A stretch of DNA of 64,000 nucleotides from assembly GCF_001677475.2 (NCBI RefSeq), contig NZ_CP015229.1. One strand, 5' to 3'. The notes beneath the pieces were generated by a model. That model had not been told where the DNA came from. It worked only from the letters and a program-made list of their open reading frames with translations, and did no database searches. Below are positions 5,401-46,600 of this stretch, in pieces; position 1 is the stretch's first letter; each line of letters begins with the position of its first letter. This DNA comes from Escherichia coli (GTDB lineage Bacteria > Pseudomonadota > Gammaproteobacteria > Enterobacterales > Enterobacteriaceae). A program made the translations under genes and the position numbers.

Positions 5401-5916
5401 TCAACCTGCCTTTGCTTTTACGCTGTGTGAGAGAATACTTGCTTCAATTTCTTCCAAAATCTCTCTGACTTGCTCGTCGGACATATCAACCAACATCAAT
5501 GCAGCCAGGCGTTTACGACCCTCTAGTTGCAGCAGTTCTTGAGTATCTTTGTCCAATAAGCGTAGTACCGTTTCAACGCCTTTCCTTGCGAACATGCTGG
5601 TAAGAGCCTCTCGTTCTTCACTAGTAAGAAACGAGAGCATCTCAGTTAGCTGATCGCCTTGACTTAAACTGCTTTGTGATTCTTGTATTTTTGGTGGGTT
5701 TCCGTTGCCTGTTTTTAACCATTCAAGACTAACACCTTCACTTTCTGCAATGCGTACCAATATGCTTTCTCGAGGTTCTGGTGTGTTTCCCTTTTTAAAA
5801 TAGCTTTGTAACGTATTGATATTTATTCCCCAGGCTCTGGCTGCAGCACTTCTTGATGGATACCGTCTAATAAGATATGCCATGCGCTCTACGATAGGTT
5901 CTTTTGCTTGCTCCAT
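5401..5916 (-). CDS. Prophage repressor (c-like), HTH DNA-binding protein
   Basis: 171-aa ORF divergent from ner-A-B; HTH-like segment SAAARAWGININTLQSYF; position matches the Mu c gene. Confidence 0.6.
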   Translation of the reverse strand: MEQAKEPIVERMAYLIRRYPSRSAAARAWGININTLQSYFKKGNTPEPRESILVRIAESEGVSLEWLKTGNGNPPKIQESQSSLSQGDQLTEMLSFLTSEEREALTSMFARKGVETVLRLLDKDTQELLQLEGRKRLAALMLVDMSDEQVREILEEIEASILSHSVKAKAG

Positions 5917-6360: not shown

Positions 6361-8457
6361 ATGCAGTTGTACGTTACCGCAAACGACTTGCTCGGCGTAC
6401 CAGGAATGCCAGTCACTGCAAAAGGTATCCGTCAGGCGTTACAGCGTTTTGCCCATGGGCGCAATGACGTTAGCCGCCGACGTGAAGGCACAAAAGCCAT
6501 TGAATACCACATCGATTGCCTGCCAGAGGTAACTCAAAGGGCACTGCGTGAACGCTATGTGGAACAGCTGGTGGCTACAGAGAACAATGTTTCTGAAGTG
6601 AAGGTTGTTACCAGGAAGGCTCGTAATCCTGATGCAGTCCAGGCAATCGAAGCATATCGCGGTTCTCCACAACTGATGGAAGAACGCCTGAACGCGTTGA
6701 CCGAAAACCAGCGCCGGGTATCTGAAGCAAGATCTGCGCTGGTGGTGGAAGTGCTGAGGCTGGAAAGAGACGGTGATCTCGGGCGACTGAAAGCCATTAA
6801 CTTTCTTGTCGAAAAAGCCCGTAAAGGTGAACTACCGGAACGCCTGCAACAGGCCGCAGTTAACGCCAATGCAAAACGTGGTGCTAATCGCACCATCAGT
6901 CGTGACCCACTTTATCAGTGGGTGCTGAAGTACAACCAGTCACAGAACGCCGCAGAACGGCTGCTGTTACTGGCACCAGGAAAACGCGACGAAATAAAAC
7001 CGGAGGAAATTAGCTGGCTACCTGAATTTCTGGCGCAGTATCGCCAGGCGAATGGCAGACCTATGTCAGAAGCCTACGAAGATTTTGTCGCGGAATGGCA
7101 GCGTCGCCATGCAGACGAACCCTACATGATAGAGGTGATGCCCTCTTACGATGTGGTTCGTTATGCCATGAAGAAATTGCCGGAAGTGGTGAAACAAAAA
7201 GGCCGTGTTACCGGCAGTGAATACCGTCAGCTTGAAGGATTCACCCGCCGCGACTGGACAGCTATGCCGGTGAATTATGTCTGGATTGGTGACGGTCACG
7301 GTATGAAGCTGAAATGTGCGCATCCGATCCACGGGCGTCCATTCTCACCAGAAGTCACGTTTGTGATCGACGGTGGAACCCGGTTTGTTGTTGGCTGGAG
7401 TCTTGATCTTGCCGAGAACGTTTTCGCCGTTGCCGGAGCGATACAGCACGGCATTCGCAACCACGGAAAACCGTTCCTGTATTACTCGGATAACGGTTCT
7501 GGTGAAACGGCTGACATGCTTGACAAAGAGGTCGTGGGTATTCTGCCCCGCCTGGGGATTAAACACCCAACAGGTATTGCCGGTAATCCACAGGGGCGCG
7601 GCATTATTGAACGCCTGAACCGGACACTGCCGATGCGTATAGCCAGGAGGTATCGCACCTATTTTGGCAAGGGTGCTGACCGGGAATCGTTGCGTGTACT
7701 TAACCGTGATCTGCGTTCAGCGTTTAACGCCCTGCAACAGGACAAGCCTCTGAACGACCGCCAGAAAGCTGCAATGCGCGAGCTACCATCGTGGGCGGAG
7801 CTTATTGAGGCTATTCGTGAAGGCGTGGAATGGTACAACAACCGCCCGCATTCTGAGCTGCCTATGAAACCGAACGGGCGGCATTACAGCCCGGCAGAGT
7901 TCAGAAAAAAACGCCTGGCAGAAGAAGACACCGAAATTGAGTGGCTGAGTGATCTTGAGCTGCGCGACATGTTCCGCCCGATGGTGGAGCGTCCGGTAAA
8001 ACGCTGTGAAATCAAATGGCTTGGCAATATTTATTACGCGCCGGAGCTGCGTGACGAACACGGTCGCAAAGTGCTTATCAGTTATGACATTCATGACGCC
8101 GAGCGAATTACGGTACGTCGCAAGGACGGCAGCTTTATCTGTGAGGCGATATGGAACGGCAATAAACGCGCAGCCTTCCCTGTCAGTGCGGAATATCACA
8201 AACAACAGCAGCGTATTAAAGGGATGCGCAAACGCGCTGAGGAAAAAATTCGCGATGCTGAAGATGAAGGTATTCAGATTCTGGAACACAAACAGGCTGA
8301 ACCCTGGCTGGATAATGTTTATCGCCCGGTTGGTAATGTGGTGGCCGTTCAGCAACCGGAATATGAAGAAGAGCATGACGAAGAATTTGAACGCGATTTC
8401 AGACTGGGGATGCAAAAACTTTTTGCCATGCAGGAAGAAGATGATCCGCTGGCCTGA
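6361..8457 (+). CDS. Mu-type DDE transposase (A protein)
   Basis: Long ORF; ATG at 6361 follows the ner stop (ORF-track start at 6292 is an upstream alternative start overlapping ner); DDE-transposase-like core (WIGDGHG ... SDNGSGE); gene order ner-A-B. Confidence 0.8.
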   Translation: MQLYVTANDLLGVPGMPVTAKGIRQALQRFAHGRNDVSRRREGTKAIEYHIDCLPEVTQRALRERYVEQLVATENNVSEVKVVTRKARNPDAVQAIEAYRGSPQLMEERLNALTENQRRVSEARSALVVEVLRLERDGDLGRLKAINFLVEKARKGELPERLQQAAVNANAKRGANRTISRDPLYQWVLKYNQSQNAAERLLLLAPGKRDEIKPEEISWLPEFLAQYRQANGRPMSEAYEDFVAEWQRRHADEPYMIEVMPSYDVVRYAMKKLPEVVKQKGRVTGSEYRQLEGFTRRDWTAMPVNYVWIGDGHGMKLKCAHPIHGRPFSPEVTFVIDGGTRFVVGWSLDLAENVFAVAGAIQHGIRNHGKPFLYYSDNGSGETADMLDKEVVGILPRLGIKHPTGIAGNPQGRGIIERLNRTLPMRIARRYRTYFGKGADRESLRVLNRDLRSAFNALQQDKPLNDRQKAAMRELPSWAELIEAIREGVEWYNNRPHSELPMKPNGRHYSPAEFRKKRLAEEDTEIEWLSDLELRDMFRPMVERPVKRCEIKWLGNIYYAPELRDEHGRKVLISYDIHDAERITVRRKDGSFICEAIWNGNKRAAFPVSAEYHKQQQRIKGMRKRAEEKIRDAEDEGIQILEHKQAEPWLDNVYRPVGNVVAVQQPEYEEEHDEEFERDFRLGMQKLFAMQEEDDPLA

Positions 8458-8532: not shown

Positions 8533-9486
8533 ATGACTGATATTGATGATGTTTTCAACACTATTAATACGTTGATCAACGAGGGCGACAAGCCCCAGGA
8601 AGATATTGCTGATGAGGCCGGAATGTCTCCGGCAACACTCTCGGCTCTGCGTAAAGGAGAATACAAAGGCAATGTCGAAGGTATGCATGACAAATTACAG
8701 GAATGGTATCGGGTCTGGCAAAAAGGGCAGAATTTGTCAGGTGCCCCCGGCGTTGTGAAGACCCAGACATTTTGTGATTTGCATGAGCTGTTTAAAACAG
8801 TGCGCTCACTCGGGATTATCAGTGTTGTTGTTGGCGTACCGGGTGTCGGCAAAACTTTTGCTGCACGGGAATATTGCCGCAAGACAGCTAATGCCTGGAT
8901 GGTGACGCTTGCACCGGCACATTCGAGCGTAACGGAATGCCTCCTTGAAATAGCATATGCGCTGGAAATTAATAATCCGGGAAGAAATAAGGGGAATATA
9001 ACCCGCGCCATTCGCAGAAAACTGGGCGGTGGTAAAGAAACCAGTGGCCGTGTTAACCCCCTGCTGATTATTGATGAAGCTGATCACTTAAGTGTGGATG
9101 GTCTGGAGCAATTACGCGCCATTCAGGATGCTACTGGCGTGGGGATGGTTTTAATTGGCAACCCGAAACAGATGGCGGATGCCACCCGTCGTGGGACTGA
9201 TGAACTGGCTCGTTTGTTCAGCCGTTTTGCCATGACAAAACAACTGCGCAAAGTGAAAAAGACTGATGTGATGGCTGTAGCCAAAGCATGGGGAGTAACA
9301 CAGGAAGATGAGCTGGATCTGCTGATGAGGGTTGCCGAAAAGCCCGGGGGATTGCGTGTATTAACTCACACACTGAATCATGCGTGGCTGGCGGCGAAAG
9401 GTGCTGGTTCATCCCTGAATAAAAGTCACATAAAAGCGGCTTTTAAGGAGGCTTACAGCAACCCTAAGTTGCTGAACTGGCAGTAA
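8533..9486 (+). CDS. Transposition ATPase B (AAA+ target-DNA activator)
   Basis: 317 aa; Walker A GVPGVGKT and Walker B LLIIDEADHL; immediately downstream of the transposase as in Mu. Confidence 0.8.
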   Translation: MTDIDDVFNTINTLINEGDKPQEDIADEAGMSPATLSALRKGEYKGNVEGMHDKLQEWYRVWQKGQNLSGAPGVVKTQTFCDLHELFKTVRSLGIISVVVGVPGVGKTFAAREYCRKTANAWMVTLAPAHSSVTECLLEIAYALEINNPGRNKGNITRAIRRKLGGGKETSGRVNPLLIIDEADHLSVDGLEQLRAIQDATGVGMVLIGNPKQMADATRRGTDELARLFSRFAMTKQLRKVKKTDVMAVAKAWGVTQEDELDLLMRVAEKPGGLRVLTHTLNHAWLAAKGAGSSLNKSHIKAAFKEAYSNPKLLNWQ

Positions 9487-10696: not shown

Positions 10697-10984
10697 ATGA
10701 TAATCCCTCGCAAAAGATGGTCACGTGAAGACCGGGAATTTATCGAAGCCAGTGTCGGGAAAATGACTGTTGAAGAAATGGCGAAAAAACTGAACGTTGC
10801 CACAAGCGCCCTGCGGGCACATGCCAGAAGGTACGGAATATCGTTGTGTGTATACAAAATCAGTGAGCACGACAAATATTTGTGTCGTGAACTTTATAAA
10901 GAAGGGGTGGCTATTCATGTCATTGCCCAAAAGATGGAATTAAGCAATCGGGCTGTATCCAGCATTGTATACAGAGAATATTAA
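10697..10984 (+). CDS. Hypothetical early protein with HTH-like repeats (95 aa)
   Basis: ORF track; RBS AAGGAGGG upstream; two helix-turn-helix-like segments. Confidence 0.4.
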   Translation: MIIPRKRWSREDREFIEASVGKMTVEEMAKKLNVATSALRAHARRYGISLCVYKISEHDKYLCRELYKEGVAIHVIAQKMELSNRAVSSIVYREY

Positions 10985-12700: not shown

Positions 12701-13013
12701 TGCTGATTTAATGGCTGCAACCTTAGTTTCCAGTGGCATGTCAGAACAAAAGGTAAATGATTTTCTGGATAATGTCGTATACCAACACTATGAGCAGGCC
12801 AGAGAAAATTTAATTTCGGAAAAGCTCACGATGATTGCTGAATCATTAAGCCCTGCATGGATTATCGAAGAGTTGCGGGGAATCATTGCCAGCCATGATA
12901 AAGTGGCGGCAGTTGCCGCCCTCGATGTGCTACAGCGAATGAGTAAAGAGCTATTCAACACTGAATTAATTTTTAAATCCGGGGGACATAATGAGCCGCA
13001 CATCCCTGATTAA
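12678..13013 (+). CDS. Hypothetical early protein (111 aa)
   Basis: ORF track; overlaps neighbouring genes by a few codons. Confidence 0.4.
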   Translation: MKIQMITDADLMAATLVSSGMSEQKVNDFLDNVVYQHYEQARENLISEKLTMIAESLSPAWIIEELRGIIASHDKVAAVAALDVLQRMSKELFNTELIFKSGGHNEPHIPD

Positions 13014-13542
13014 ATTAATTCATGTTGCCCGTCGGGAGTTGCAACTCGACGATGACACTTACCGCGCCTTTCTGGTGCAGTGCACAGGCAAGACCAGTTG
13101 CCGCGAGCTGACCTTCGCACAACTGGAACTGGTGCTCGATGCCATGAAAGAGCGCGGTTTTAAGAAGCAGAAAAAACATCCCCGCCGTCGCTTTAAGGGG
13201 CATGTCACACCACGCGAGAAGATTTACAAAATCTGGCAGCAGATGTTTCTTGATGGTTTCGTCTCCGATATCAGCGACGCCGCGCTGGACAAATACGTTG
13301 AACGCCTGACGGCCAGACGTAATGGCGGTCAGGGTGTTTCCACGCTGGTCTGGTGTCACGGGGAATCGTTGCAGGTTGTGCTCGAAACGCTCAAGCAGTG
13401 GCACATGCGCTGCATCCGGGAAGCCTTTGCCCGACATGGTGTGCCGTTACCTGCAAGCCCATCCGGGCGGGAACTACGCGGATATGATGCACTGACCAGT
13501 GCATATGCCCGCGCACGAAACAGCGGGAGAATTGCTGTATGA
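12991..13542 (+). CDS. gemA: GemA-like (Mu gp16 / DUF1018) regulatory protein
   Basis: 183 aa directly upstream of mor, as in Mu; assignment from position and sequence recollection. Confidence 0.5.
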   Translation: MSRTSLIKLIHVARRELQLDDDTYRAFLVQCTGKTSCRELTFAQLELVLDAMKERGFKKQKKHPRRRFKGHVTPREKIYKIWQQMFLDGFVSDISDAALDKYVERLTARRNGGQGVSTLVWCHGESLQVVLETLKQWHMRCIREAFARHGVPLPASPSGRELRGYDALTSAYARARNSGRIAV

Positions 13543-13988
13543 AACAGATGAAAGAGCAGGATTTATTCGAAGACCTTCGGGACGACAGCGTTCTGGAATA
13601 TCTTCATGATTACCAGGAAAACACCGCTTATCCGGCGTTACTTTCTGAACTGAACGCACTGCTGCGTAAAGAGCTGGCCCGGATTGGCGCAGACCCTGCT
13701 CATTCCCTTGAGCTGGTTGTGGCGATTTGTCGCCATATCGGCGGGATGCAGGTTTATGTTCCGAGGGGGAATATTCTGGAGAATCTTGTCCGGGATATGC
13801 GTATCTGGCGTGATTTTAACGGTCATAATATTCCTGAACTGGTTCAGCGTTACGGGGTGACGTATAAAACCGTCTACAAGGCCATCAAACGGATGCGACG
13901 TCTGGAGCGCAATAAATACCAGCCGGATTTGTTTTACCCCTCCCCGAACCTGCCTCACCCCGTTCGTCGTCCACCACGACGCCCTTAA
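13539..13988 (+). CDS. mor: Mor/C-family transcriptional activator (middle operon regulator)
   Basis: 149 aa; Mor/C-family HTH region (...VYVPRGNILENLVRDMRIWRDFNGHNIPELVQRYGVTYKTVYKAIKRMRR); location before the lysis/late genes. Confidence 0.7.
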   Translation: MKQMKEQDLFEDLRDDSVLEYLHDYQENTAYPALLSELNALLRKELARIGADPAHSLELVVAICRHIGGMQVYVPRGNILENLVRDMRIWRDFNGHNIPELVQRYGVTYKTVYKAIKRMRRLERNKYQPDLFYPSPNLPHPVRRPPRRP

Positions 13989-13993
13989 TCAAT

Positions 13994-14018
13994 GAAGCCG
14001 GTAAATCCGGCTTTTTTT
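13994..14018 (+). terminator. Intrinsic terminator-like hairpin GAAGCCGG-TAAAT-CCGGCTTTTTTT after mor
   Basis: GC-rich inverted repeat followed by a T-run, directly after the mor stop. Confidence 0.6.
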
Positions 14019-14073
14019 ATGCCTCCGGCACCATGAAGCAGACCACGTTTAAATCTGCTTCACAGGTGCTTTT

Positions 14074-14670
14074 ATGGAAAATCAAAAATTCTCCCCGGCC
14101 TTTGAACATGCGCTGAATTTCATTCTGCGTCCCGATATCGAAGGCGTCTATGCCAATGACCCCACTGACCGTGGCGGTGAAACCAAATACGGCATTTCTG
14201 ACCGCCGCGACGGTGTGACTGACGGCAAAACCGATGTCAACGGCGACGGCAAACCGGATACCCGCATCAGGGATTTAACCCGCGAACAGGTTGCTCAGAT
14301 TTACTGGCGCGATTACTGGCTGCCTGCCGGATGTGACCAGTGGCCTGATGGCGTGGCGATGTTTGTGTTCGATGCGGCGGTTCAGCATGGCGTTAAAAAA
14401 GCTATCAGGATTTTGCAGGAAGCCGCGGATGTGGATGCTGACGGCATCATCGGCCCCCGTACCCGTAAGGCCGTGAGCCTGTCCACCCCGGACTGGCTGC
14501 TGGCCCGCTGCATTGTCCGTCGTTCCCGCTTTTATGCCGACATCATCAAGTCCAAACCCGCCCAGGGCAAATACCTGAACGGCTGGTTTAACCGCATGGA
14601 AAAGCTGACCGACGCCTGTCTGGAAATCATCGATACCCCTCCAGGCATCATGTCCGCCACGCGGGGGTGA
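14074..14670 (+). CDS. Endolysin (glycoside hydrolase family 108-like with peptidoglycan-binding domain)
   Basis: 198 aa; conserved N-terminal GH108-type region and PG-binding-like C-terminus; first gene of the late region. Confidence 0.7.
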   Translation: MENQKFSPAFEHALNFILRPDIEGVYANDPTDRGGETKYGISDRRDGVTDGKTDVNGDGKPDTRIRDLTREQVAQIYWRDYWLPAGCDQWPDGVAMFVFDAAVQHGVKKAIRILQEAADVDADGIIGPRTRKAVSLSTPDWLLARCIVRRSRFYADIIKSKPAQGKYLNGWFNRMEKLTDACLEIIDTPPGIMSATRG

Positions 14671-14671
14671 T

Positions 14672-14923
14672 ATGGGCAAAGGCTGGGATGCCTCTCTGAA
14701 AGCCGGGCGGCGCGACCGCCTGCGTCAGGAGGTTCTGCACCGCATGGCCGGAGGTCCGCCCCCGAAACCGCTGGACTATACCGGCCATGACGGCACACAC
14801 GCCAGCTACTACATGCGTGGCTGGAACTCCGTGGATACACGGGACATTTTCTGGCAGTGCCAGAAGTACAGGGAAAAATTCAATGTGGAAAAAGGTTATG
14901 AACAAAATTTTAAAACTGTGTGA
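14672..14923 (+). CDS. Hypothetical lysis-region protein (83 aa)
   Basis: ATG 2 nt after the endolysin stop. Confidence 0.35.
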   Translation: MGKGWDASLKAGRRDRLRQEVLHRMAGGPPPKPLDYTGHDGTHASYYMRGWNSVDTRDIFWQCQKYREKFNVEKGYEQNFKTV

Positions 14924-15308: not shown

Positions 15309-15904
15309 CCCTTTCAGGCATCGCCTCCGTTCTGCTGAAAGCCGGGCCGGGGCTGATTCGTTCCGTCGGGCGCTGGTTTGGTGGCGGTACATCTGCCGCC
15401 GCTGACTCGGTGGCCGGTATGGTGGAAAGCGTCCGGGAAAGCCTGCCGGTGGCTGAACAGCAGCGCGTTCTGGAACAGAAGATGGCGATGTTACCACCGG
15501 AACAACAGATACAACTGGAAACCCTGAAAATTCAGCTGCAACAACTGGAGGTGGAGCGGCAGAAGCTGGTGCTGGCTGACCAGCAGGCCGCACACCACGA
15601 ACAGCAGGAAACCATCCGCAATGGTGACAACGCCACGGACAGCTATGTGCGCCAGACGCGCCCGCTGCTGGCCCGCCTTTCCTGTTACAGCGGTCTGGCC
15701 TATGTGCTGTTGCTCTCCTGCGGCCAGATTGCCGGAGCCGTTGCCGGTGCCAGAGGTATCACGCTGCATATGCCAACACCGGACTGGGATATCACGCTGA
15801 TGTTGCTTACCCCTGCGCTGGGCTATCTCGGCGTGCGAACCCTTGACGGCTTTGCCCGTTACAGCAAATCAAGCCGTCACAAAATGTCTGCGGGGCTGAA
15901 ATGA
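15297..15904 (+). CDS. Membrane/coiled-coil protein, putative lysis accessory (spanin-like?)
   Basis: ORF 15146-15904 trimmed to GTG 15297 with GGAGG RBS; Gln/Leu-rich coiled coil plus C-terminal hydrophobic segments. Confidence 0.3.
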
Positions 15905-16128
15905 CCGATGAAATCGACCGCATCAGTGAAGTGGTTCTGAACGAGCGTCAGTGCGTCGTTAAAGCCTGGCAGACGCGGACAAAAGAAGCGCCCCACAGTC
16001 GGGGCTTCTGCAATGACTGCGGGAACGTTATTCCGGCACAGCGCCTTGCGGCGCTGCCGGATGTGGTGACCTGTATTGACTGCCAGCAGATGCGTGAGCG
16101 CAGGAGGAAGACATGTCCTGGGAAGTGA
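15901..16128 (+). CDS. TraR/DksA-family C4 zinc-finger protein
   Basis: 75 aa with CNDCGNVIP...CIDCQ four-Cys motif. Confidence 0.6.
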   Translation: MTDEIDRISEVVLNERQCVVKAWQTRTKEAPHSRGFCNDCGNVIPAQRLAALPDVVTCIDCQQMRERRRKTCPGK

Positions 16129-16418
16129 TCCGGGCCAACTGGCCCATTTTATGGGCGCTGTTGATGACAGCGATAAATTTGCTTCAGCTGATTCTGGCAA
16201 AGACTTACGTCAAACGCGAAGAGTTTGATTCGCTGCGTTCCCGTGTGTCGGTGATGGAAGGTCTGGTGAATCAGCTCCCCGACCGCAATGAATTTCACCG
16301 CCTGCAACTGGATATCAGCAACCTGCGGGGCGAAATCCGGGAACTGGGGCCATCCATACGCCAGGTTTCCCGCATCAGTGATTTGTTATTAGAGAACGAG
16401 TTAAAGGTAAAAAATTAA
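16113..16418 (+). CDS. Small membrane-anchored coiled-coil protein (DUF2730-like)
   Basis: 101 aa; N-terminal hydrophobic helix then coiled coil; common before Mu-like head genes. Confidence 0.4.
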   Translation: MSWEVIRANWPILWALLMTAINLLQLILAKTYVKREEFDSLRSRVSVMEGLVNQLPDRNEFHRLQLDISNLRGEIRELGPSIRQVSRISDLLLENELKVKN

Positions 16419-16711
16419 TGGCGATGAAAGAGATCCTCACTGAAGACCGTCGTCTGGTGTTGCTGCGTTCCCTGCTGGACTGTGGCGACAGCGCGAATGA
16501 ATCCGTGTTGCAGACCTGCCTTCAGGCTTATGGTCATAAGGTATCCCGTGATGTGGTGCGCACCCAGCTTGCATGGCTTCGCGAGCAGGGGTTGGTTCGT
16601 CTGTCTGATGTGGGCGGCTGTTACGTGGCTGAAATCACCGGCAGCGGCGAGGATGTGGCAAACGGCCTGTCCAGCGTTCCGGGCGTTAAAAAACCCCGTG
16701 CGAGGGGCTGA
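16418..16711 (+). CDS. Hypothetical protein (97 aa)
   Basis: ORF track; ATG overlapping the previous stop. Confidence 0.4.
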   Translation: MAMKEILTEDRRLVLLRSLLDCGDSANESVLQTCLQAYGHKVSRDVVRTQLAWLREQGLVRLSDVGGCYVAEITGSGEDVANGLSSVPGVKKPRARG

Positions 16712-21589: not shown

Positions 21590-21726
21590 CCCTCCCGCCG
21601 TAAATCCCCCTGAAACGCATCAGAAACGCGTTTTTTATTCTGATGGCGTGAATGTGCATTCTGACGTTTTTGAAGATGCTGTGGCGTTTTTGAAGGGGTT
21701 TTGAAGGGGGTATTTCCCCGTTTTCA

Positions 21727-21753
21727 GTGAAGCCGGTAAATCCGGCTTTTTTT
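21727..21753 (+). terminator. Second copy of the GAAGCCGG-TAAAT-CCGGCTTTTTTT hairpin
   Basis: Same hairpin plus T-run as at 13994-14018, in the F-to-I intergenic region. Confidence 0.55.
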
Positions 21754-21802
21754 CTGCCTTCCGCATACTGACCGTCGGTAACCCCAGACGACGGAGACTG
21801 AC

Positions 21803-22758
21803 ATGCAACCGGAACTGCTGGCGCTGTGTTTTTCCCTGCCAGAACCCATCCCTGAGCTGACACCTGCTCAACTGCCGGAATGGCTCGAACTTGTCCCTGC
21901 GGGTGAGTTCACCGGCGCGATGGCCGGACGTGGATTAACCGCAATCCGCATGAGGTGGTTGCCCGTTCGTCCGGCATCAAAATTCCGGTGGATATTGAAC
22001 ACGCCACCGAAATTAAAGGCCCGCGTGGTGAAGATGCTCCGGCGTATGGCTGGGTGGAAGAACTGCGGGTGACGGACAGCAGCACCATTGAAGGGCGTGT
22101 TGTCTGGAGCGAGTCCGCCCGCTGGATGCTGAGCGAGCGCCGCTACCGCTATTACAGCCCGGCGTTTTTCTTTGACGCGGAAGGCGTAGTGACGCGCCTG
22201 TCCAGCGTCGGGCTGACCAACAAACCTAACCTGGATTTTCCTGCACTGAATACGGAGAAAAACCTGATGACAGTACCTGTGCAAATCACCGGCCTGCTTG
22301 GGCTGGCTGAATCTGCCACGGTGGACGATACCGTGGCCGCCATTAAACAACTTCAGGAGAACGAACAGGTGGCGCTGAACCGCGCACAGACACCTGATCT
22401 GACGAAGTTTGTGCCGGTGGAAACCCACAATCTGGCCCTGAACCGTGCCGAAACCGCAGAACAACGCCTTCAGCAACTTGAAGAGAAGGAAGCAGAAGCG
22501 CTTGTGGATGCGGCCATCGAAGCCGGAAAAGTGGCCCCGGCAAACCGTGACATGTTCCTTGCCACCTGCCGCACGGAAGAAGGCCGCAAACAGTTTGCGG
22601 AGTACACCAGAGGCGCACAGCCGCTGGTGAACAACGACAAGCCCAGCCAGGGCAAGGATAAACCCGCGCAGACACTGACCGACACCGAACTGGCGATGTG
22701 CCGCAGCATGGGTATTACCGGGGAAGAGTTCCTCGCCGCTAAACCGAAACAGGAGTAA
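21803..22758 (+). pseudogene. Head protease/scaffold (Mu I-like) with an apparent -1 frameshift near 21915
   Basis: N-terminal part (...LPEWLELVPAGEFTG) is in one frame (ORF 21803-22072), the rest (RDGRTWINRNPHEVVARSSGIKIPVDIEHATE...) in the -1 frame (ORF 21955-22758); joined by one missing base after ACCGG at about 21914. Confidence 0.55.
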
Positions 22759-22765
22759 GTAACAC

Positions 22766-23701
22766 ATGTCACAGACTATCAGTTCTGAAATCCTTCATGC
22801 ACTGACCACCTGCCTGAGCGCCGCCTTTACCCGTGGACTGAGTGGTGTCGAACCGCAGTGGAATCGTATTGCTTCTGAGGTGCCGAGTTCGTCCGCCTCC
22901 AACACCTACGGCTGGATGAAAGATTTACCGGACATCAAAGAATGGGTCGGTGAGCGTCAGCTGGCAACGCTGGACGGTTATGGTTACACCATCACCAACA
23001 AACTCTGGGAAAGTTCCATTCGCGTTAAGCGCGAACACATTGAAGATGACCAGATAGGTCAGTACAGCATTACCGCCGAACGCTATGGCCGTATGACTGC
23101 TGTGTTCCCGGACAAGCTGTGTTACGCCCTGTTGTGTGCCGGGTTTAACACCCTGTGCTTTGACGGCCAGAACTTCTTTGATGAAGACCACCCGCTGGGC
23201 GACGGCACCTACAGCAACGTTGTCGGTACACCAGGAACGGACCAGGGCGAACCGTGGTTTCTGATTGATGAGTCGCAGGTGCTGAAACCCATCATCTGGC
23301 AGACGCGACGCGCCTTTAAATTTGAAGCCCTGGACGATCTGAACAGCGAGCACACCTTCAAGAACCACGAGTTCCTGTACGGCGTGGACGGTCGCTGTAA
23401 TGCGGGCTTCGGCTTCTGGCAGACCGCCGTCGGTTCCGTGCAGCACTGACGGTGGAGAACTACAAAAAAGCCAATGAGTTGCTGCGGGGCATGAAGGCAC
23501 CAACGGTGAGCCGCTGGGCATCCGCCCGACCACCCTTGTGGTGGGGCCGAAAAACCGTGCGGACGCGAAGCTCATTATTGACGCCATGCTGGTTAACGGC
23601 GGCGATTCAACATCTGGTACAAGGATGTGGAGATCGTGGACAGCCCGTACATCACACCGCTGGCAATAACCCGTCATCGCGTATCTGTAACCCGCAGTTA
23701 A
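22766..23701 (+). pseudogene. Major head subunit (Mu T-like) interrupted by three apparent single-base deletions
   Basis: Protein-like translation continues through three frame changes: ...AVGSVQ / (A)LTVENYKKANELLRGMK / GTNGEPLGIRPTTLVVGPKNRADAKLIIDAMLVNGGDS / NIWYKDVEIVDSPYITPLAITRHRVSVTRS*, shifting at about 23443, 23497 and 23608. Confidence 0.55.
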
Positions 23702-23751
23702 AAGGCGCTGCGAATGCCCTTTTAACTGCCTTTTAAAAGGCAGAGTCATGA

Positions 23752-31300: not shown

Positions 31301-32370
31301 TGGGATCCGTGATTCTTACCGTTGACGGCAAACTGTGGGAAGGCTGGACGGAAATGTCTGTCAGTCGTTCCCTGAAGGCGATTGCCGGTGAGTTTGAGCT
31401 CAGTGTAACAACCCGCTGGTCATCGGCGGCACCGCGCGTGATTCGTGAGGGGCAACCCTGCACGGTCAGGCTGGGTGCAGATACCGTGCTGACGGGGTAT
31501 ATCGATGATTTTATCCCCAGCTATGACGCAAACAGCGTGGAGATTCGCGTCATGGGGCGCGATAAAACCGGCGACCTGGTGGACTGCTCTGTGGTGCATT
31601 CGTCCGGGAAATGGAAAGGCGTGCGGCTTGAACAGGTGGCGGCTGATGTCTGCCGCCCGTTCGGGATAACCGTCATCACGGAAAACCCGACCGGGGAGGC
31701 GTTTGCGTCCGTTGTTCTGGAACAGGGTGAAACGGGTTTTGAACTGCTCGACCGGCTGGCAAAACAGCGCGGCGTTCTGCTGACGTCTGACGGGGCGGGT
31801 AATCTGATTATCACCCGCGCCTCTTCCGTTCGCGCGGGCGTGTCACTGGTGCTGGGAAAAAATATCCTCGCCGCCCGTGGGCGCTTCAGCTGGCGGGAGC
31901 GTAACAGTCAGTACATCATCAAGGGCACCACCAGTGCCGGTGGCAGAGTGTGGGACAGCCAGCCTGCCCCGATGGTGGGCGGTCGCCAGTACATCATCGA
32001 AGACTCTGAAATTAACCGTTACCGTCCGCGCATTCTGGTCAATGAAGACAGCCTGACCGTGGGCGGGGCCAGCATTCGCGGAGAATGGTATAAAGCCCGG
32101 ATGCTGGGAGAGGCCCGCACGACGGAAATCACGGTGGCAGGCTGGCGCGAACAGGGCGACAGCGGTCCGCTGTGGCAGACCAACCGCCTTGTCGATATCG
32201 ACGACAGCATTCAGAACCTGAAAACCACCTGGCTGATATCCGGGGTGACCTGGACGGATGGCGCACAAGGGCGGATGACGGTTCTGGCGCTGGTTCCGCC
32301 TGAATCACTGGATATGCCGGAAATGAAAGCGAAGACGAAGAAAACAAAGGCGGTGGCCACATGGGATTAA
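31300..32370 (+). CDS. Tail/baseplate hub protein (Mu P-like, late control D-like)
   Basis: 356 aa; gene order. Confidence 0.55.
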   Translation: MGSVILTVDGKLWEGWTEMSVSRSLKAIAGEFELSVTTRWSSAAPRVIREGQPCTVRLGADTVLTGYIDDFIPSYDANSVEIRVMGRDKTGDLVDCSVVHSSGKWKGVRLEQVAADVCRPFGITVITENPTGEAFASVVLEQGETGFELLDRLAKQRGVLLTSDGAGNLIITRASSVRAGVSLVLGKNILAARGRFSWRERNSQYIIKGTTSAGGRVWDSQPAPMVGGRQYIIEDSEINRYRPRILVNEDSLTVGGASIRGEWYKARMLGEARTTEITVAGWREQGDSGPLWQTNRLVDIDDSIQNLKTTWLISGVTWTDGAQGRMTVLALVPPESLDMPEMKAKTKKTKAVATWD

Positions 32371-32897
32371 ACGCCATTGCCCGCCGTCTGCGACTGATGG
32401 TTGACCGTGCCATTGTCCGCATGGTGTCTGACAGTCTGGAGCGGCAGAACCTGCAAATCCAGACGCTGGCAGATGCCACCGACGACGACGTGGAACGCTT
32501 CCAGAACTACGGTTTTACATCCGTGCCGCCGGAAGGTTCTGAAGCCATAGTGCTGGCCGTTAGCGGGCGGCGTGACGGGCTGGTTGCCATCGCGGTGGAG
32601 GACAAGCGATGTCGCCCGAAAGGGCTGTCCCCCGGCGACGTCCGGCTGTATCACCAGGACGGCAAATCACATATCACGTTAAGGAAAGGCGGAATTATTG
32701 AAATCACAGGGGAACAATTAAACGTTTCAGGGAAAACGGTAAATCTCACCGCCGACGAATTACTGGCTATAAATGCAGGAAATATGAAATTCGTCGGTCC
32801 CTGTGAGTTTACTGAAGATGTCAGAATCAACGGCAAATCTTTCAGCGAACACATTCATAAGGACGGCGACAATGAGAATACATCACCGCCCGTATGA
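32361..32897 (+). CDS. Baseplate assembly protein V-like (spike; Mu gp45-like)
   Basis: 178 aa; gene order within baseplate cluster. Confidence 0.55.
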   Translation: MGLNAIARRLRLMVDRAIVRMVSDSLERQNLQIQTLADATDDDVERFQNYGFTSVPPEGSEAIVLAVSGRRDGLVAIAVEDKRCRPKGLSPGDVRLYHQDGKSHITLRKGGIIEITGEQLNVSGKTVNLTADELLAINAGNMKFVGPCEFTEDVRINGKSFSEHIHKDGDNENTSPPV

Positions 32898-38559: not shown

Positions 38560-39135
38560 ATGAAAATCAGAGCGGTGAAAGGTATCAGAAACGCACATTA
38601 TCTTGAAAATGGTGCGGTTGACTGCGAGGTGTTATTTGAAGGTGAAACGGAGTTCGCCCTGTATACTGCCATACAGGATGATATGGCCCCGACAGGCCAG
38701 CACATCTGGCAGGAGCTGCAAAGCGGGAAATGGGGCGAAATCGCCCCGTTCACCGTCACGCCGGAACTTATTGCAGCGGCAAAGGATGCCAAAAGGCGGG
38801 AAATTGAGGCATGGCGCGACAGTCAGGAAAACGTTGAGTTTATTTTCACGTTTGATGGCCGTCGTTTTGATGGCGGAAAAACCTCGCAGTCACGCCTTGC
38901 CCCCGTGGTTGCAGCAGCGCAGGCCGGACTGCTTCCGGAGGGATTTTTCTGGACTGATGCGGATAATAACAACGTCGTACTGACCAGGGAGAAACTTATT
39001 GCGCTGAACGATGCCATGATGGTGGCCATGGTGACGGAGGGCTTTAAAATCCACGAACGCCAGCGCGAGATGAAAGAGCAACTTTCCCTGCTGTCCACAC
39101 TGAGCGATATAAGAGCGTTAACGCCCGGTTATTAA
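38560..39135 (+). CDS. Tail fibre assembly protein (second Tfa)
   Basis: ATG 38560 (alternative ATG 38545 right after the fibre stop); about 191 aa downstream of the long fibre gene. Confidence 0.5.
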   Translation: MKIRAVKGIRNAHYLENGAVDCEVLFEGETEFALYTAIQDDMAPTGQHIWQELQSGKWGEIAPFTVTPELIAAAKDAKRREIEAWRDSQENVEFIFTFDGRRFDGGKTSQSRLAPVVAAAQAGLLPEGFFWTDADNNNVVLTREKLIALNDAMMVAMVTEGFKIHERQREMKEQLSLLSTLSDIRALTPGY

Positions 39136-39158
39136 GTCATCATTTTGTATAGTTTATA

Positions 39159-39257
39159 ACGATCGATACAATCGTATCGATCGTCAGTTTGCATCATCTG
39201 TGATTAAATACCCTGGCCCTCAGGGCTGTCGTATCTGGTTAATACACAGGTGGGATC
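39159..39257 (+). promoter_or_regulatory. com-mom upstream control region with GATC-containing inverted repeat
   Basis: Inverted repeat ACGATCGATAC/GTATCGATCGT (39159-39184) carrying two GATC sites, a third GATC at 39254-39257 abutting the com ATG. Confidence 0.45.
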
Positions 39258-39443
39258 ATGGATGCTGTTCGTTGTAAAAACTGCAATAAATTGCTGTTTA
39301 AAGGAAGTTTTAAGCATATAGAAATCAAATGCCCTCGTTGTAAACGTTACATTGTCATGTCGAGTGCCCGGGAGCATCCCACGGAGCTGTATTGTGGGAA
39401 AAGAGAAGAAATCACGCATCCTTACAAAACCCTGCGTTATTGA
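39258..39443 (+). CDS. com: Com zinc-finger translational activator of mom
   Basis: 61 aa; [10 protein letters not shown]...CPRCKR four-Cys zinc finger closely resembling Mu Com; overlaps the mom 5' end. Confidence 0.8.
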
Positions 39444-40089
39444 GTATGAAGGCCGTATTGTCGGCTATGGTTCAAGGGAACTGCGCGTTGAAACCATATC
39501 CTGCTGGCTGGCCCGCACAATCATTCAGACAAAGCACTATTCCCGCCGTTTTGTGAATAACTCCTGGTTGCATCTGGGGGTATTCAGCGGACGTGATCTG
39601 GTTGGCGTTCTCCAGTGGGGATACGCCCTTAATCCCAACTCAGGGCGTCGGGTCGTGCTGGAAACGGATAACCGGGGCTATATGGAACTGAACCGCATGT
39701 GGTTACACGACGACATGCCCCGCAACTCTGAATCACGGGCTATCAGCTACGCACTGAAAACCATCAGGTTACTGTATCCATCAGTGGAGTGGGTTCAGTC
39801 CTTTGCAGACGAACGCTGCGGACGTGCAGGTGTTGTGTATCAGGCATCTAATTTTGATTTTATTGGTAGCCATGAAAGCACGTTCTACGAGCTGGACGGC
39901 GAGTGGTATCACGAGATAACGATGAACGCGATTAAGCGTGGAGGACAACGAGGCGAGTATTTGCGGGCTAATAAGGAGCGGGCGGTGGTACACAAATTTA
40001 ATCAGTATCGCTACATCAGATTCCTGAACAAGCGCGCAAAAAAGCGATTAAATACCAAGCTATTCAGGATTCAGCCATACCCGAAGTGA
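39394..40089 (+). CDS. mom: Mom DNA-modification protein (anti-restriction)
   Basis: Frame open from 39352; start placed at GTG 39394 (231 aa, start uncertain); last gene before the prophage right end as in Mu. Confidence 0.7.
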
Positions 40090-40154
40090 TCTCACTTAAT
40101 GAATAAAAAAGCAGCGGCCAATGCCGCTGTTTCGTTTGAAGCGCGAAAATTAAA

Positions 40155-40204
40155 GTTTTCGCATTTATCGTGAAACGTTTTCGCGTTTTTCGTGCGCCGC
40201 TTCA
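40155..40204. repeat. Prophage right terminus (Mu attR-like transposase binding sites, ends ...GCGCCGCTTCA)
   Basis: Reverse complement reads TGAAGCGGCGCACGAAAAACGCGAAAACGTTTCACGATAAATGCGAAAAC, nearly identical to my recollection of the canonical Mu right end. Confidence 0.7.
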
Positions 40205-43699: not shown

Positions 43700-46600
43700 A
43701 TGGAAGAGGCATTCTGGGCGGCAAGGCAGGGTGATGCCCTGCTGCATACGTCGTTTATGGCAGATGTGCTGGGGGCAGTTGTAGAGGTTGCCGCCACAGC
43801 CCTGGTGGATGTTCTGGTTGTCGGAACCATGGCGGCGCTGGGCGGAGTTGAAGTGGCAACGCTGGGCTGCTCAACCATTTTAGCGATCGGTATAGCAACA
43901 GCGGTATTTATGTCGTATCAGGGCTGGAATGACCGAATCAGTAGGGAAAGTGAGCAACTGGCGAACTGGCTTTTCCCGCCTCAGATTGAAGGTTACATCC
44001 TCACCGGCTCTGGCGACACATGGATCAACAGCAAACCTGCCGCGCGGGCCGCGGCGACTGCGGCATCGCGGCAGGACATTGAGGCGCAGGAGGCGCAGGC
44101 GAAGGCGGAACAGGAAGAAGCGCAGCGTCAGGAGGATGCCAGAACGTTCCTGGATGTGGCCGGGGAATATCTGGAAATGGCGGGGGCCATAGCCCTGGCG
44201 GTTAACCCGGTGACAGGGCCTGTGCTGATGTCCCGGGCGCTGCACGACCAGCTCAGTACGGAAGAAGGGCGTTCTGAAATGGTGGATGGCGTGACACATT
44301 TTGTGTCGGAACTATGGCAGCCCACCGTGGCCAGTGCGGCCCCGGGCTCCACCCCGACCCCTGACGATAAAATCGACTGCCATAAACATCCCTCCTCACT
44401 GACGCAGTTTCTCGCACAAAAAAAAGCCGCCTTTCTGGATGACCCCCTGGGAACGGCCCTTAACCTGCTGAGTCCGGGCGGTATGCTGGAAACCGCCTTT
44501 CAGGGAGTGAATGCGGTTATTGGCAGCATCAGTAATCTGTTCAAAGGCGATGATGAACCGCCCGCAGCGGAATATATCGCGGAAGGCGCGCGGGATGTGC
44601 GTATCAACAGCCAGCCGGCGGCACGCAGCGGGGCACGCTGCACCTGCGAGGCCAGGGTGGTGAATGAGCCGGGGAACGGGGCGTTTGTGTCACCGGATGT
44701 CCGCATTGGCGGTCCGTTACTGGTGGTCAGGGATATCAGAAGCGGCAGGTCGCAGATAACCCTGGTGGCAACCGTGGCGCTGATGTTTCTTCGCCCGGGC
44801 AAAATGCTTTCTAAAATCGCCTGTTTTGCTGCCAGTGTCGGGATGGGGGTGATGACGCAGAAGGCCATCAGTGCCCTTCCGCATCCGGTCAATGCCGCCA
44901 CCGGAGCCAAATATCTGGCCGATGACGATGATTTTGACTTCAGTCTGCCGGGCCACTTTCCGCTGGACTGGCAGCGCGTGTACAGCAGTCGTGACGACCG
45001 CACGGAAGGGATGTTCGGGCAGGGCTGGAGTGTAATGTATGAAGTCAGCCTCGAGCGCACGCCGGGTACTGCTGACGAAAACTGTATGACCTTTGTGTCG
45101 GGCATGGGACGACGTCTGGATATGGAGGCCGTGCTGCCGGGGAGCGGGTTTTACAGCCCCGGCGAAGGACTGGCAGTACGGCGGGGTGAGCAGGGGCACT
45201 GGCTTATCAGCAGCGATGACGGGCAGTTTTTTCTGTTTGAGGCCGACCCGCGTCACCCGCAGCGCCAGCGGCTGAAAATGCTGGGCGACCGCAACAGCAA
45301 CTGTCTGAATCTGTACTACGACGAGCTGGGGCGCATCACGCAAATCAGCGGTGAACAGCAGCGTCCGTGCATCCGTCTGCATTATGAACTGGCGGCGCAT
45401 CCCCGGCGGGTGACACAGATTTATCAGCATTTCCCTGAGATGGCTCCTTTACTGCTGCGTCGTTACCGCTATGACGAGGCCGGCGACCTGAACGGCGTGT
45501 ACGACAGCACGGGGCACCTGCTGCGCGAGTTTGCTTACGACGAAAACCACTGCATGACCCTGCACCGCCAGCCGGGCGGCGAAGGGTATTATTACCAGTG
45601 GGGCTGGTATGAAGGCCCGGATGACGCAGCGTGGCGGGTGACGGGGCACCACACGGACAGCGGTGAACAGTACCGGCTGGCGTGGAGCCTGGCGGCACGC
45701 AGGCTGTGCGTGACGGACGGGCTGGGGCGCACGCGTTATCATCAGTGGGACGCGCAAAATCAGGTGACGGCGTACCAGGACGAAGCCGGGCAGGTGACGA
45801 CGTTCCGCTGGAGCGACGAAGAACGGCTGTTACTGGGAATGACCGATGCGCAGGGCGGCAAATGGCGCTATGTGTATGACCGGCAGGGGCATATCACGGA
45901 GACGCACGACCCGCTGGGGCGGGTGGCACAGACACAGTGGCACCCGGTGTGGCACCAGCCGGAAACGGAGGTGGACGCGGCGGGGAACAGCTGGTGCTGT
46001 GAGTACGATGAACGCGGCAATCTTCTTGCGGTGACCGACCCGCTGCAGCAGAACACCCGGTATCAGTATGACCGCCACGGCCAGGTGGTGCAGATAACGG
46101 ATGCGCGCGGGGGGAATAAATACCTTCAGTGGAACGAAGACGGGCAGCTCATGCGGCACACGGACTGTTCCGGCTCGCAGACGGCCTGGTTCTACGACGA
46201 ACGCACGCGGCTGATACGGATGACAGACGCGCAGAGCCACAGCACGCGCTACGGGTATGACGACAGCGGCCACCTGACGGAGGTGATACTGGCGGACGGC
46301 CGCACGGTGAATTACCAGTCGGACGCGGCGGGCAGGCTGGTGAAGTACACCAGCCCGATGGGGAGGATAACGCGCTGGCAGCGGGACGGGCAGGGCCGGG
46401 TGCGCAGCCGGACAGACGCGACGGGGCGCAGGACGGCGTTCGGGTACGATGCCTACGGGCGTCTGGTCACGCTCACGAACGAGAACGGAGAAAGCTACCG
46501 GTTCCGCCATGACGTGCTGGACCGTCTGGCGGAGCAGATAAATCCGGACGGCTGCCGCCAGACGTACCGCTACAACGCGCTGAACGCGGTCACGGAAGTG

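Follow-up and report, generated by a model that had tools for sequence, protein, structure and literature searches.

Bacteriophage Mu represents the textbook three-step phage transcription cascade. In its reference genome (AF083977), the loci concerned are annotated in the order gemA, mor, the middle promoter Pm, genes 18–20, C, the promoter Plys and lys. Mor and C are under active study, with cryo-electron microscopy (cryo-EM) of the activation complexes in 2025 and an analysis of clamp-dependent late transcription in 2026. Here we describe a Mu-like prophage of the transposable type, a member of a lineage widespread in enterobacteria, contained in a 64,000 nt stretch of Escherichia coli DNA (contig NZ_CP015229.1 of assembly GCF_001677475.2; the whole stretch is called the window in the following). 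An original prediction, made from these letters only, had placed the Mor/C genes of Mu between gemA and lys, in agreement with the AF083977 annotation, had noticed just one such gene in the element, and had proposed either a simpler two-tier cascade or a C-like activator located elsewhere. The first of these proposals is probably correct: the early operon would provide a single Mor protein, and this protein would activate three late promoters directly, with no C.

The mor-like gene (13539–13988, plus strand) starts with ATG, encodes 149 amino acids and is the sole Mor/C-family gene of the element. Its product matched the Pfam family Mor (PF08765) with an e-value of 3.6e-30 and 104.6 bits (cut-off 24.9) over profile positions 3–107 of 107. 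Its identity is 63% with Mu Mor and 32% with Mu C, and among the protein structures in the PDB it matched those of Mor (1RR7/9L0Y) with an e-value of 4e-52 and that of C (9L0X) with an e-value of 3e-14. The family is characterized by an N-terminal dimerization region, a conserved beta-strand linker (GGxQxYxP) and a C-terminal helix-turn-helix (HTH). The protein agrees with this architecture, and in the alignment IGGMQVYVPRG and VTYKTVYKAIKRMRRLE are in register with both Mor and C.

Upstream lies a gemA-like gene (12991–13542, plus strand; GemA, PF06252, e-value 2.1e-31), the penultimate gene of the early operon. Its 3′ end overlaps the start of mor by 4 nt, and the order gemA-mor is the same as in Mu. 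The mor-like gene agrees with a mor orthologue in being nearer to Mor than to C and in its location directly 3′ of gemA at the end of the early operon. Downstream follows the endolysin gene lys (14074–14670, plus strand), which opens the first late operon and whose product contains a Glyco_hydro_108 domain (e-value 3.2e-23) and a PG_binding_3 domain (e-value 3.2e-17). The gap from the mor stop to the lys start (13989–14073) measures exactly 85 bp. Both the Mor-like character of the single 149-amino-acid protein and the 85 bp distance to lys had been anticipated by the original prediction, and both are borne out here.

The original prediction had further suggested a search of the element for another Mor/C-family protein. 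We ran this search on all six-frame open reading frames (ORFs) of the window. Neither phmmer nor tblastn revealed a second Mor/C gene when queried with the window protein or with the two Mu activators, no match being better than an e-value of 0.67. We also used a profile of 50 Mor/C sequences, those of Mu Mor and Mu C among them; it matched the mor ORF with an e-value of 1.2e-71, and the next best match in the window had an e-value of 1.3. The same profile found one member each in the related, complete E. coli STEC1575 prophage and in the complete Klebsiella phage Kp4866-3; the annotation of the STEC1575 prophage by the Prokaryotic Genome Annotation Pipeline (PGAP) also lists one Mor/C gene only. 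In addition, we collected 58 related viral loci from IMG/VR, with Mor proteins 61–100% identical, and counted the Mor/C genes within 10 kb of mor. There was exactly one in each of them. Of these loci, 56 are long enough to show the following gene, and in them a GH108 lys homologue begins within ~0.1–0.65 kb of where the mor match ends. On sequence evidence, a C-like activator located elsewhere is missing, since no other Mor/C gene was found in the window, in STEC1575, in Kp4866-3 or in the 58 loci.

The presence of a single Mor/C gene is therefore confirmed, but it is no peculiarity of this element. Queries of the phage collection with the window protein and with Mu C gave 50 matching records each. 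Two places with Mor/C genes were found only in records of Muvirus, the genus of Mu itself (Mu, D108, SfMu and close Yersinia and E. coli relatives); the other Mu-like phages have one. From this distribution, the single activator is the usual state and the pair of Mu is the exception. One Mor/C gene each, 27–39% identical, is found in BcepMu (gp01), phiE255 (gp32), Vibrio phage martha 12B12, and Pasteurella and Shewanella Mu-like phages. The mor-lys segment itself is present in 50 of 5426 complete E. coli genomes. As a member of a known family the gene is thus ordinary, and layouts with a single activator are frequent. The search for close single-copy relatives of Mu C was uninformative about its origin, with a best match outside Muvirus of 39% identity.

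Damage to a Mu-type genome was considered as another origin of this layout. Compared with the intact STEC1575 prophage, the I-like gene (21803–22758) of the window has a single-base deletion near 21914 and the T-like major-head gene (22766–23736) has single-base deletions from ~23436 onward; these deletions shift the reading frames, and either this copy is defective or the assembly contains indel errors. Such lesions would be in line with a decayed Mu that lost the C gene and the middle operon by deletion. We consider this extremely improbable, because the C-less layout recurs in the 58 viral loci, in 50 complete E. coli genomes and in the deposited Klebsiella phage over the whole range of Mor identities of 61–100%, and because the late gene set is unlike that of Mu, with a GH108 endolysin and no C boxes.

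With one Mor/C gene in the element, the two-tier cascade leads to the question of where its product would bind. Mu Mor binds a 16-bp dyad at positions −51 to −36 of Pm, centered at −43.5, and this 16-mer was defined in Mu by footprinting and by mutations (PMC4390567, PMC4287176). Pm possesses a −10 hexamer and no −35 element, and has G at −57 and A at −54 (PMC4390567, PMC4287176). We placed the site in the Mu genome from the published −51 to −36 dyad and checked the numbering against −57G and −54A, with the Mu transcription start at 9224. The Mor site of Mu Pm then reads AGTAAAGCCGGTTAAT (Mu 9173–9188). The gap between mor and lys contains a sequence identical to it at 13 of 16 positions, AATGAAGCCGGTAAAT (13991–14006, plus strand; called Mor box 1), which scores 23.5 bits with a position weight matrix (PWM) and is predicted to occupy −51 to −36 of the lysis-operon promoter.

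The same gap contains GAAGCCGGTAAATCCGGCTTTTTTT, an intrinsic terminator almost identical to the terminator after Mu mor. The terminator scan located this putative end of the early operon at 13994–14018 on the plus strand (GAAGCCGG-TAAAT-CCGGCTT followed by seven T), overlapping box 1. In Mu, the terminator (9179–9200) likewise overlaps Pm, and the Mor site covers its 5′ half, as box 1 does here. A −10-like hexamer, CACCAT (14029–14034, plus strand), follows 22 nt past box 1 with no −35 element, and the hexamer of Mu Pm, TATCCT (9211–9216), has the same 22 nt distance from its box. Relatives have CAAAAT, CACTAT or TAAATT at this position. The predicted start of lysis transcription, at ~14042, is 32 nt before the lys ATG. 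The gap thus matches Mu Pm in four respects, namely the box, the overlapping terminator, the 22 nt spacer and the position of the hexamer.

This arrangement is conserved. Each of the 56 related loci with a lys gene has a Mor box 77–110 nt upstream of that gene. Kp4866-3 and others have a small ORF inserted between mor and the box, so the box travels with lys and not with mor. In Kp4866-3 (L005) the insert (7967–8295) is AT-rich and encodes a predicted membrane protein; inserts were also seen in L018–L025 and others, and none is present in the window.

Directly 3′ of lys lies a homologue of Mu gene 18 (E18; 14672–14923, plus strand), found with Mu gp18 as the tblastn query (69% identity along its full 72 residues, e-value 1e-31). 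In Mu, gene 18 is the first gene of the middle operon, 3′ of Pm. The position of the gp18 homologue after lys, taken together with the shared promoter sequence, indicates that Mu Pm and the lysis promoter of this lineage are the same promoter.

Two further elements were noted in this region. An inverted second box ~58 bp downstream of box 1 was considered as a general Mor site and rejected, as it is strong only in some sub-clades and is degenerate in the clade of the window, with 5.7 bits (p ~0.07). Inverted box-like 16-mers of 15–19 bits, centered 55–59 bp past box 1, occur in L005 (~8363–8378), L027, L035, L039–L044, L047, L049 and L051–L055. An inverted repeat, GAAGCAGA-(11 nt)-TCTGCTTC (14035–14061, plus strand), starts directly past the −10 hexamer and extends to just short of the lys ribosome-binding site. 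It is present in nearly all 38 unique lysis-promoter variants with many different stem sequences, and the mean folding z-score of 30 unique segments is −2.5. As its 5′ arm precedes the predicted start, an RNA form could exist only in read-through transcripts. Inverted repeats were also observed at 21772–21794, at 32752–32796 around the hexamer of the third box described below, and in Mu Pm (L001, 9218–9247).

Two more boxes of this type precede other late genes. Box 2, AGTGAAGCCGGTAAAT (21726–21741, plus strand), occupies the F-I gap, which separates the F-like gene from the I-like (head protease/scaffold) gene and corresponds in place to PI of Mu; it is the best PWM match of the window with 24.0 bits. 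Exactly two places in the window contain the 21-mer AGCCGGTAAATCCGGCTTTTT, namely 13996 and the box 2 copy, where zero would be expected. A −10-like hexamer, CATACT (21764–21769, plus strand), follows 22 nt past box 2, with a predicted start at ~21777 and the I-like ATG at 21803; at this position relatives have GACACT or CACACT, 22–23 nt from the box. Among the related loci, 50 extend to the F-I gap, and every one of them has a box there.

Box 3, AGGGAAAACGGTAAAT (32729–32744, plus strand), is the third-best PWM match and is located inside the baseplate-V-like gene (32361–32897), upstream of a gp46-like gene. Here the −10-like hexamer TATAAA (32768–32773, plus strand) follows after 23 nt, with a predicted start at ~32781, and relatives possess TATTAT, CATTAT, ATTAAT or ATAAAT in its place. 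Among 44 loci retrieved by the baseplate protein (59–95% identity), box 3 is the top match at the same gene position in 42. The codons beneath it are compatible with the box, with GGG in 37 of 38, AAT in 37 of 37, and GTA or GTT in 37 of 37 sequences, and the segment of lowest synonymous variation in the gene overlaps box 3 (0.24 versus a mean of 0.53).

The PWM scan of the entire 64-kb window returned these three sites as its three best matches; three matches reach 18 bits, compared to 0.075 expected from shuffled sequences. A matrix made from the Mu and Klebsiella sites only, leaving out those of the window, yielded the same top three, and in STEC1575 and Kp4866-3 the three best matches again fall at the homologous positions. 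A scan for the sigma-70 consensus detected no promoter in the mor-lys gap or in the F-I gap. Searching for C boxes (TTAT-N5-6-ATAA), we found four matches in the window; all lie left of coordinate 10300, which leaves the late region without any. Known RNA families were not detected in an Rfam scan of 5000–41000.

Since both strong copies in the window are at the same time hairpin-plus-T-run terminators and have 46 nt of similar sequence in common, the repeated element might be a terminator module reused at operon ends, with its likeness to a Mor site as a by-product and the late promoters recognized in some other way. For box 2, the terminator scan indeed located an overlapping intrinsic terminator at 21729–21753 (plus strand), the putative end of the first late operon. 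However, many diverged copies in the F-I gap have lost the stem complement and the T-run and have kept the 16-mer, including the 5′ arm outside the stem, together with the spacing. These hairpin-less copies show that the conserved entity is the box and not the terminator. Moreover, box 3 is intragenic and lacks a hairpin or T-run, the distance to the −10-like hexamer is constant at 22–23 nt, and in Mu this 16-mer is the Mor site established by footprinting and by mutations. A mere terminator module is therefore very unlikely. The two-tier cascade put forward by the original prediction, in turn, gains support from the boxes, as sequences of the Pm type with the Pm spacing precede the lysis, head and baseplate/tail-fibre blocks and are conserved across the lineage.

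The sequence of the protein fits these sites. Its HTH is located toward the C-terminus (residues ~94–121; 13818–13901, plus strand) and gives sub-threshold matches to Pfam HTH_28/HTH_23. In C, the HTH residues touching DNA are S110, Q113, Y115, Q116 and R120 according to a cryo-EM preprint. Aligned to these positions, the 149-amino-acid protein has T, T, Y, K and R, the same residues as Mu Mor, and differs from C at three positions. The Mor-type contact residues fit with the near-identical Mor box.

A different picture emerged for the motifs that bind the replication clamp. An N-terminal DLF motif was described and found to be required in Mor (L5A) and MuC, and an N-terminal [D/E][L/M]F clamp-binding motif was reported to be general for the Mor/C family (PMC12867686). 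Mu Mor has the DLF motif at its N-terminus only (PMC12867686). In the window protein, QDLF at residues 7–10 (EQDLF at 6–10; 13557–13568, plus strand) aligns with the DLF that serves clamp binding at the N-termini of Mu Mor and Mu C. A second motif, QPDLF at residues 128–132 (13920–13934, plus strand), is the same sequence that binds the clamp near the C-terminus of Mu C; in Mu Mor, QPSLL stands at this place. Of 59 proteins of the lineage, 44 possess Qxx[LM]F toward the C-terminus. Compared with a C orthologue, the protein differs in overall similarity (32%) and in the DNA-contact residues (T, T, Y, K, R), but agrees in the C-terminal QPDLF. It joins residues predicted to mediate Mor-type DNA recognition with a C-type C-terminal motif for putative clamp binding, and it probably also carries the coupling of late transcription to the replication clamp that is known from C.

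After this motif, the protein continues into a Pro/Arg-rich tail of 17 residues, YPSPNLPHPVRRPPRRP (13935–13985, plus strand), with seven Pro and four Arg, that extends past the end of Mu Mor. The Pro/Arg-rich C-terminal extension mentioned in the original prediction is thus present, but it is restricted to the closest clade (13 of the 59 lineage proteins), whereas other members end 0–5 residues after QxxLF. The conserved C-terminal part is the QPDLF-type motif, and in the alignment the tail is a clade-specific appendix to this C-like motif.

The DNA itself shows that there is one mor gene and that the boxes and their spacing are conserved; from this we infer how Mor binding, activation, transcription starts and clamp use may proceed. 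Early transcription would pass through gemA and the single mor orthologue and halt at the intrinsic terminator at 13994–14018. Mor would then accumulate and bind the 16-bp boxes at approximately −43.5, of which box 1 overlaps the 5′ half of this terminator. Bound Mor would recruit sigma-70 RNA polymerase to three promoters that possess a −10 hexamer and lack a −35 element, as Mu Mor does at Pm. The lysis promoter would read straight into the endolysin gene and the rest of the first late operon, with its lysis, packaging, portal and F-like genes. In this way, the transcripts for lysis/packaging, head/tail and baseplate/fibre genes would start together from one activator, and a C protein would not be needed. 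The C-terminal QPDLF may couple this late step to replication, as in MuC. Compared to the three tiers of Mu, the Pm-type promoter leads into lys and not to a second Mor/C gene, and C boxes are absent from the late region.

Several observations weigh against this two-tier cascade or parts of it. At least one late unit lies outside the model, as the com-mom promoter has no full box. The −10-like hexamers of the window are weak (CACCAT, CATACT). Box 3 overlaps the codons of a conserved G-K-x-V-N peptide, so that its conservation is partly due to coding constraint, and the sequences used to evaluate box conservation are phylogenetically related and share ancestry. QxxLF is missing from the C-terminus of 15 of the 59 lineage proteins, and coupling to the clamp through this motif is thus not universal. 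Binding, start sites and timing are read across from Mu Pm by homology, on computational evidence. Finally, given the single-base deletions in the I-like and T-like genes, the circuit may not be productive in this particular prophage.

The com-mom promoter region (39160–39257, plus strand) begins with three GATC sites followed by TGTGATTAAATACCC..., and com starts at 39258. Neither a full Mor box, by PWM or by eye, nor a C box was found in it; only the right arm TAAAT is present, followed after 22–23 nt by TATCTG or TATCCT (22 nt and TATCTG in the window). Mom shares 97% identity with Mu-type Mom. Similarity nevertheless breaks off inside com, and the 5′ half of com as well as the promoter are specific for the lineage. 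This looks like a recombination joint inside com, each promoter presumably having been kept with its own type of activator. In a comparison of 39130–39560 with Mu (L004, 21650–22060), the 3′ half of com and Mom are nearly identical, and the promoter and 5′ com are unrelated except for the GATC sites.

A mom promoter without a Mor box would also fit a second activator from outside the Mor/C family. Under such a scheme, three tiers would remain: Mor would activate the lysis operon only, and a regulator encoded there would activate the head and tail genes. Candidates exist in the first late operon, namely a zf-dskA_traR protein four genes after lys (15901–16128, e-value 6.5e-11) and a protein similar to Mu gp26 (16418–16711, with the gp26 homology at 16424–16708); the Mu record annotates gp26 as winged-helix. 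We regard this scheme as unlikely, because the head and baseplate promoters have the same box and spacing as the lysis promoter, conserved in the lineage, which points to one common activator, and because Mu has gp26 yet still needs C. TraR/DksA proteins work via the secondary channel of RNA polymerase and not at specific promoters. Among the other small early and late ORFs, Pfam searches identified no further regulator above threshold, with a weak HTH signal in the homologue of Mu gp9 (10697–10984). The TraR/DksA-type C4 zinc-finger protein at 15901–16128 has no homologue in Mu.

The two-tier cascade with Mor as the common late activator can be compared with several known systems. With Mor and Pm of Mu it shares 63% identity of the activator, the HTH contacts, the position as the last early gene after gemA, a nearly identical 16-bp site, the overlap with a terminator, the 22 nt spacing, the absence of a −35 element and the gene 18 homologue downstream. 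Unlike here, Mu Pm drives genes 18–20 and C, whereas in the window the putative promoter precedes the endolysin and late genes directly and its box recurs at two late promoters; Mu Mor also lacks both the C-type QPDLF and the 17-residue tail of the window protein. With Mu C, which acts at Plys, PI, PP and Pmom, the window protein shares QPDLF and its inferred role as one activator for several −35-less late promoters, and PP resembles the promoter at box 3 in that each is located inside a tail/baseplate gene. It differs from C in the low identity (32%), the lack of late C boxes, the Mor-type contacts and a mom promoter with neither a C box nor a full Mor box. The Klebsiella phage Kp4866-3 has one Mor/C gene and has the whole layout and all three boxes in common with the window. 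In P2-like phages, one phage activator (Ogr/Delta) turns on all late operons at promoters without a good −35 element. The likeness to the window Mor consists in the single late activator, while fold and site are unrelated (zinc finger versus Mor/C HTH), and the window protein does not belong to the Ogr/Delta family.

More tentatively, the three tiers of Mu might be the derived state. In this scenario, which we regard as possible but somewhat short of probable, a diverged C was placed into the first Mor-dependent operon and the other late promoters were re-keyed to it, and Pm would correspond to the lysis promoter of this lineage. The lineage described here would have kept the simpler circuit, in which a Mor-type protein runs replication-coupled late transcription, and the inverted repeat after the hexamer would be a control element of Mor-dependent promoters. 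A lineage close to Mu in which one activator apparently does both jobs offers a natural comparison. It raises the questions of how the specificities of Mor and C diverged, whether clamp coupling is tied to the late-gene activator, and why Mu has a middle step. For annotation, such prophage proteins would best be taken as late-gene activators and not as a “middle operon regulator”. We found no paper on the late promoters of this lineage in a literature coverage that was incomplete and is not proof that none exists. Within that coverage, we did not find a description of this combination, in which a close relative of Mu has Pm-type boxes at its late promoters, a Mor DNA-binding domain occurs together with a C clamp motif, and Pm and the lysis promoter are equivalent, as proposed here.

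The ends and surroundings of the prophage were also inspected. The right end (40140–40204) is almost identical to the right end of Mu and closes with ...TTTTCGTGCGCCGCTTCA at 40204. The left end was not located by the Mu left-end sequence or by comparison to STEC1575, because the immunity region differs. The DNA to the left of a repressor-like gene (5401–5916) is unlike Mu or STEC1575 and contains three ATTCAAGATA repeats at ~5168, 5240 and 5292. Just outside the prophage, a 1571-amino-acid ORF (43700–48415) lies within a block of ~62% G+C, followed by AT-rich DNA. In the AT-rich region past the prophage, identical stretches of at least 80 nt were found at 49614–49700 and 51928–52014, 2.3 kb apart, which probably belong to a repeated mobile element. 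The chromosomal flank at 56000–60000, with narI, narW, yddE and nhoA, is ~96% identical to the best E. coli genomes, and the host may belong to a divergent Escherichia lineage.

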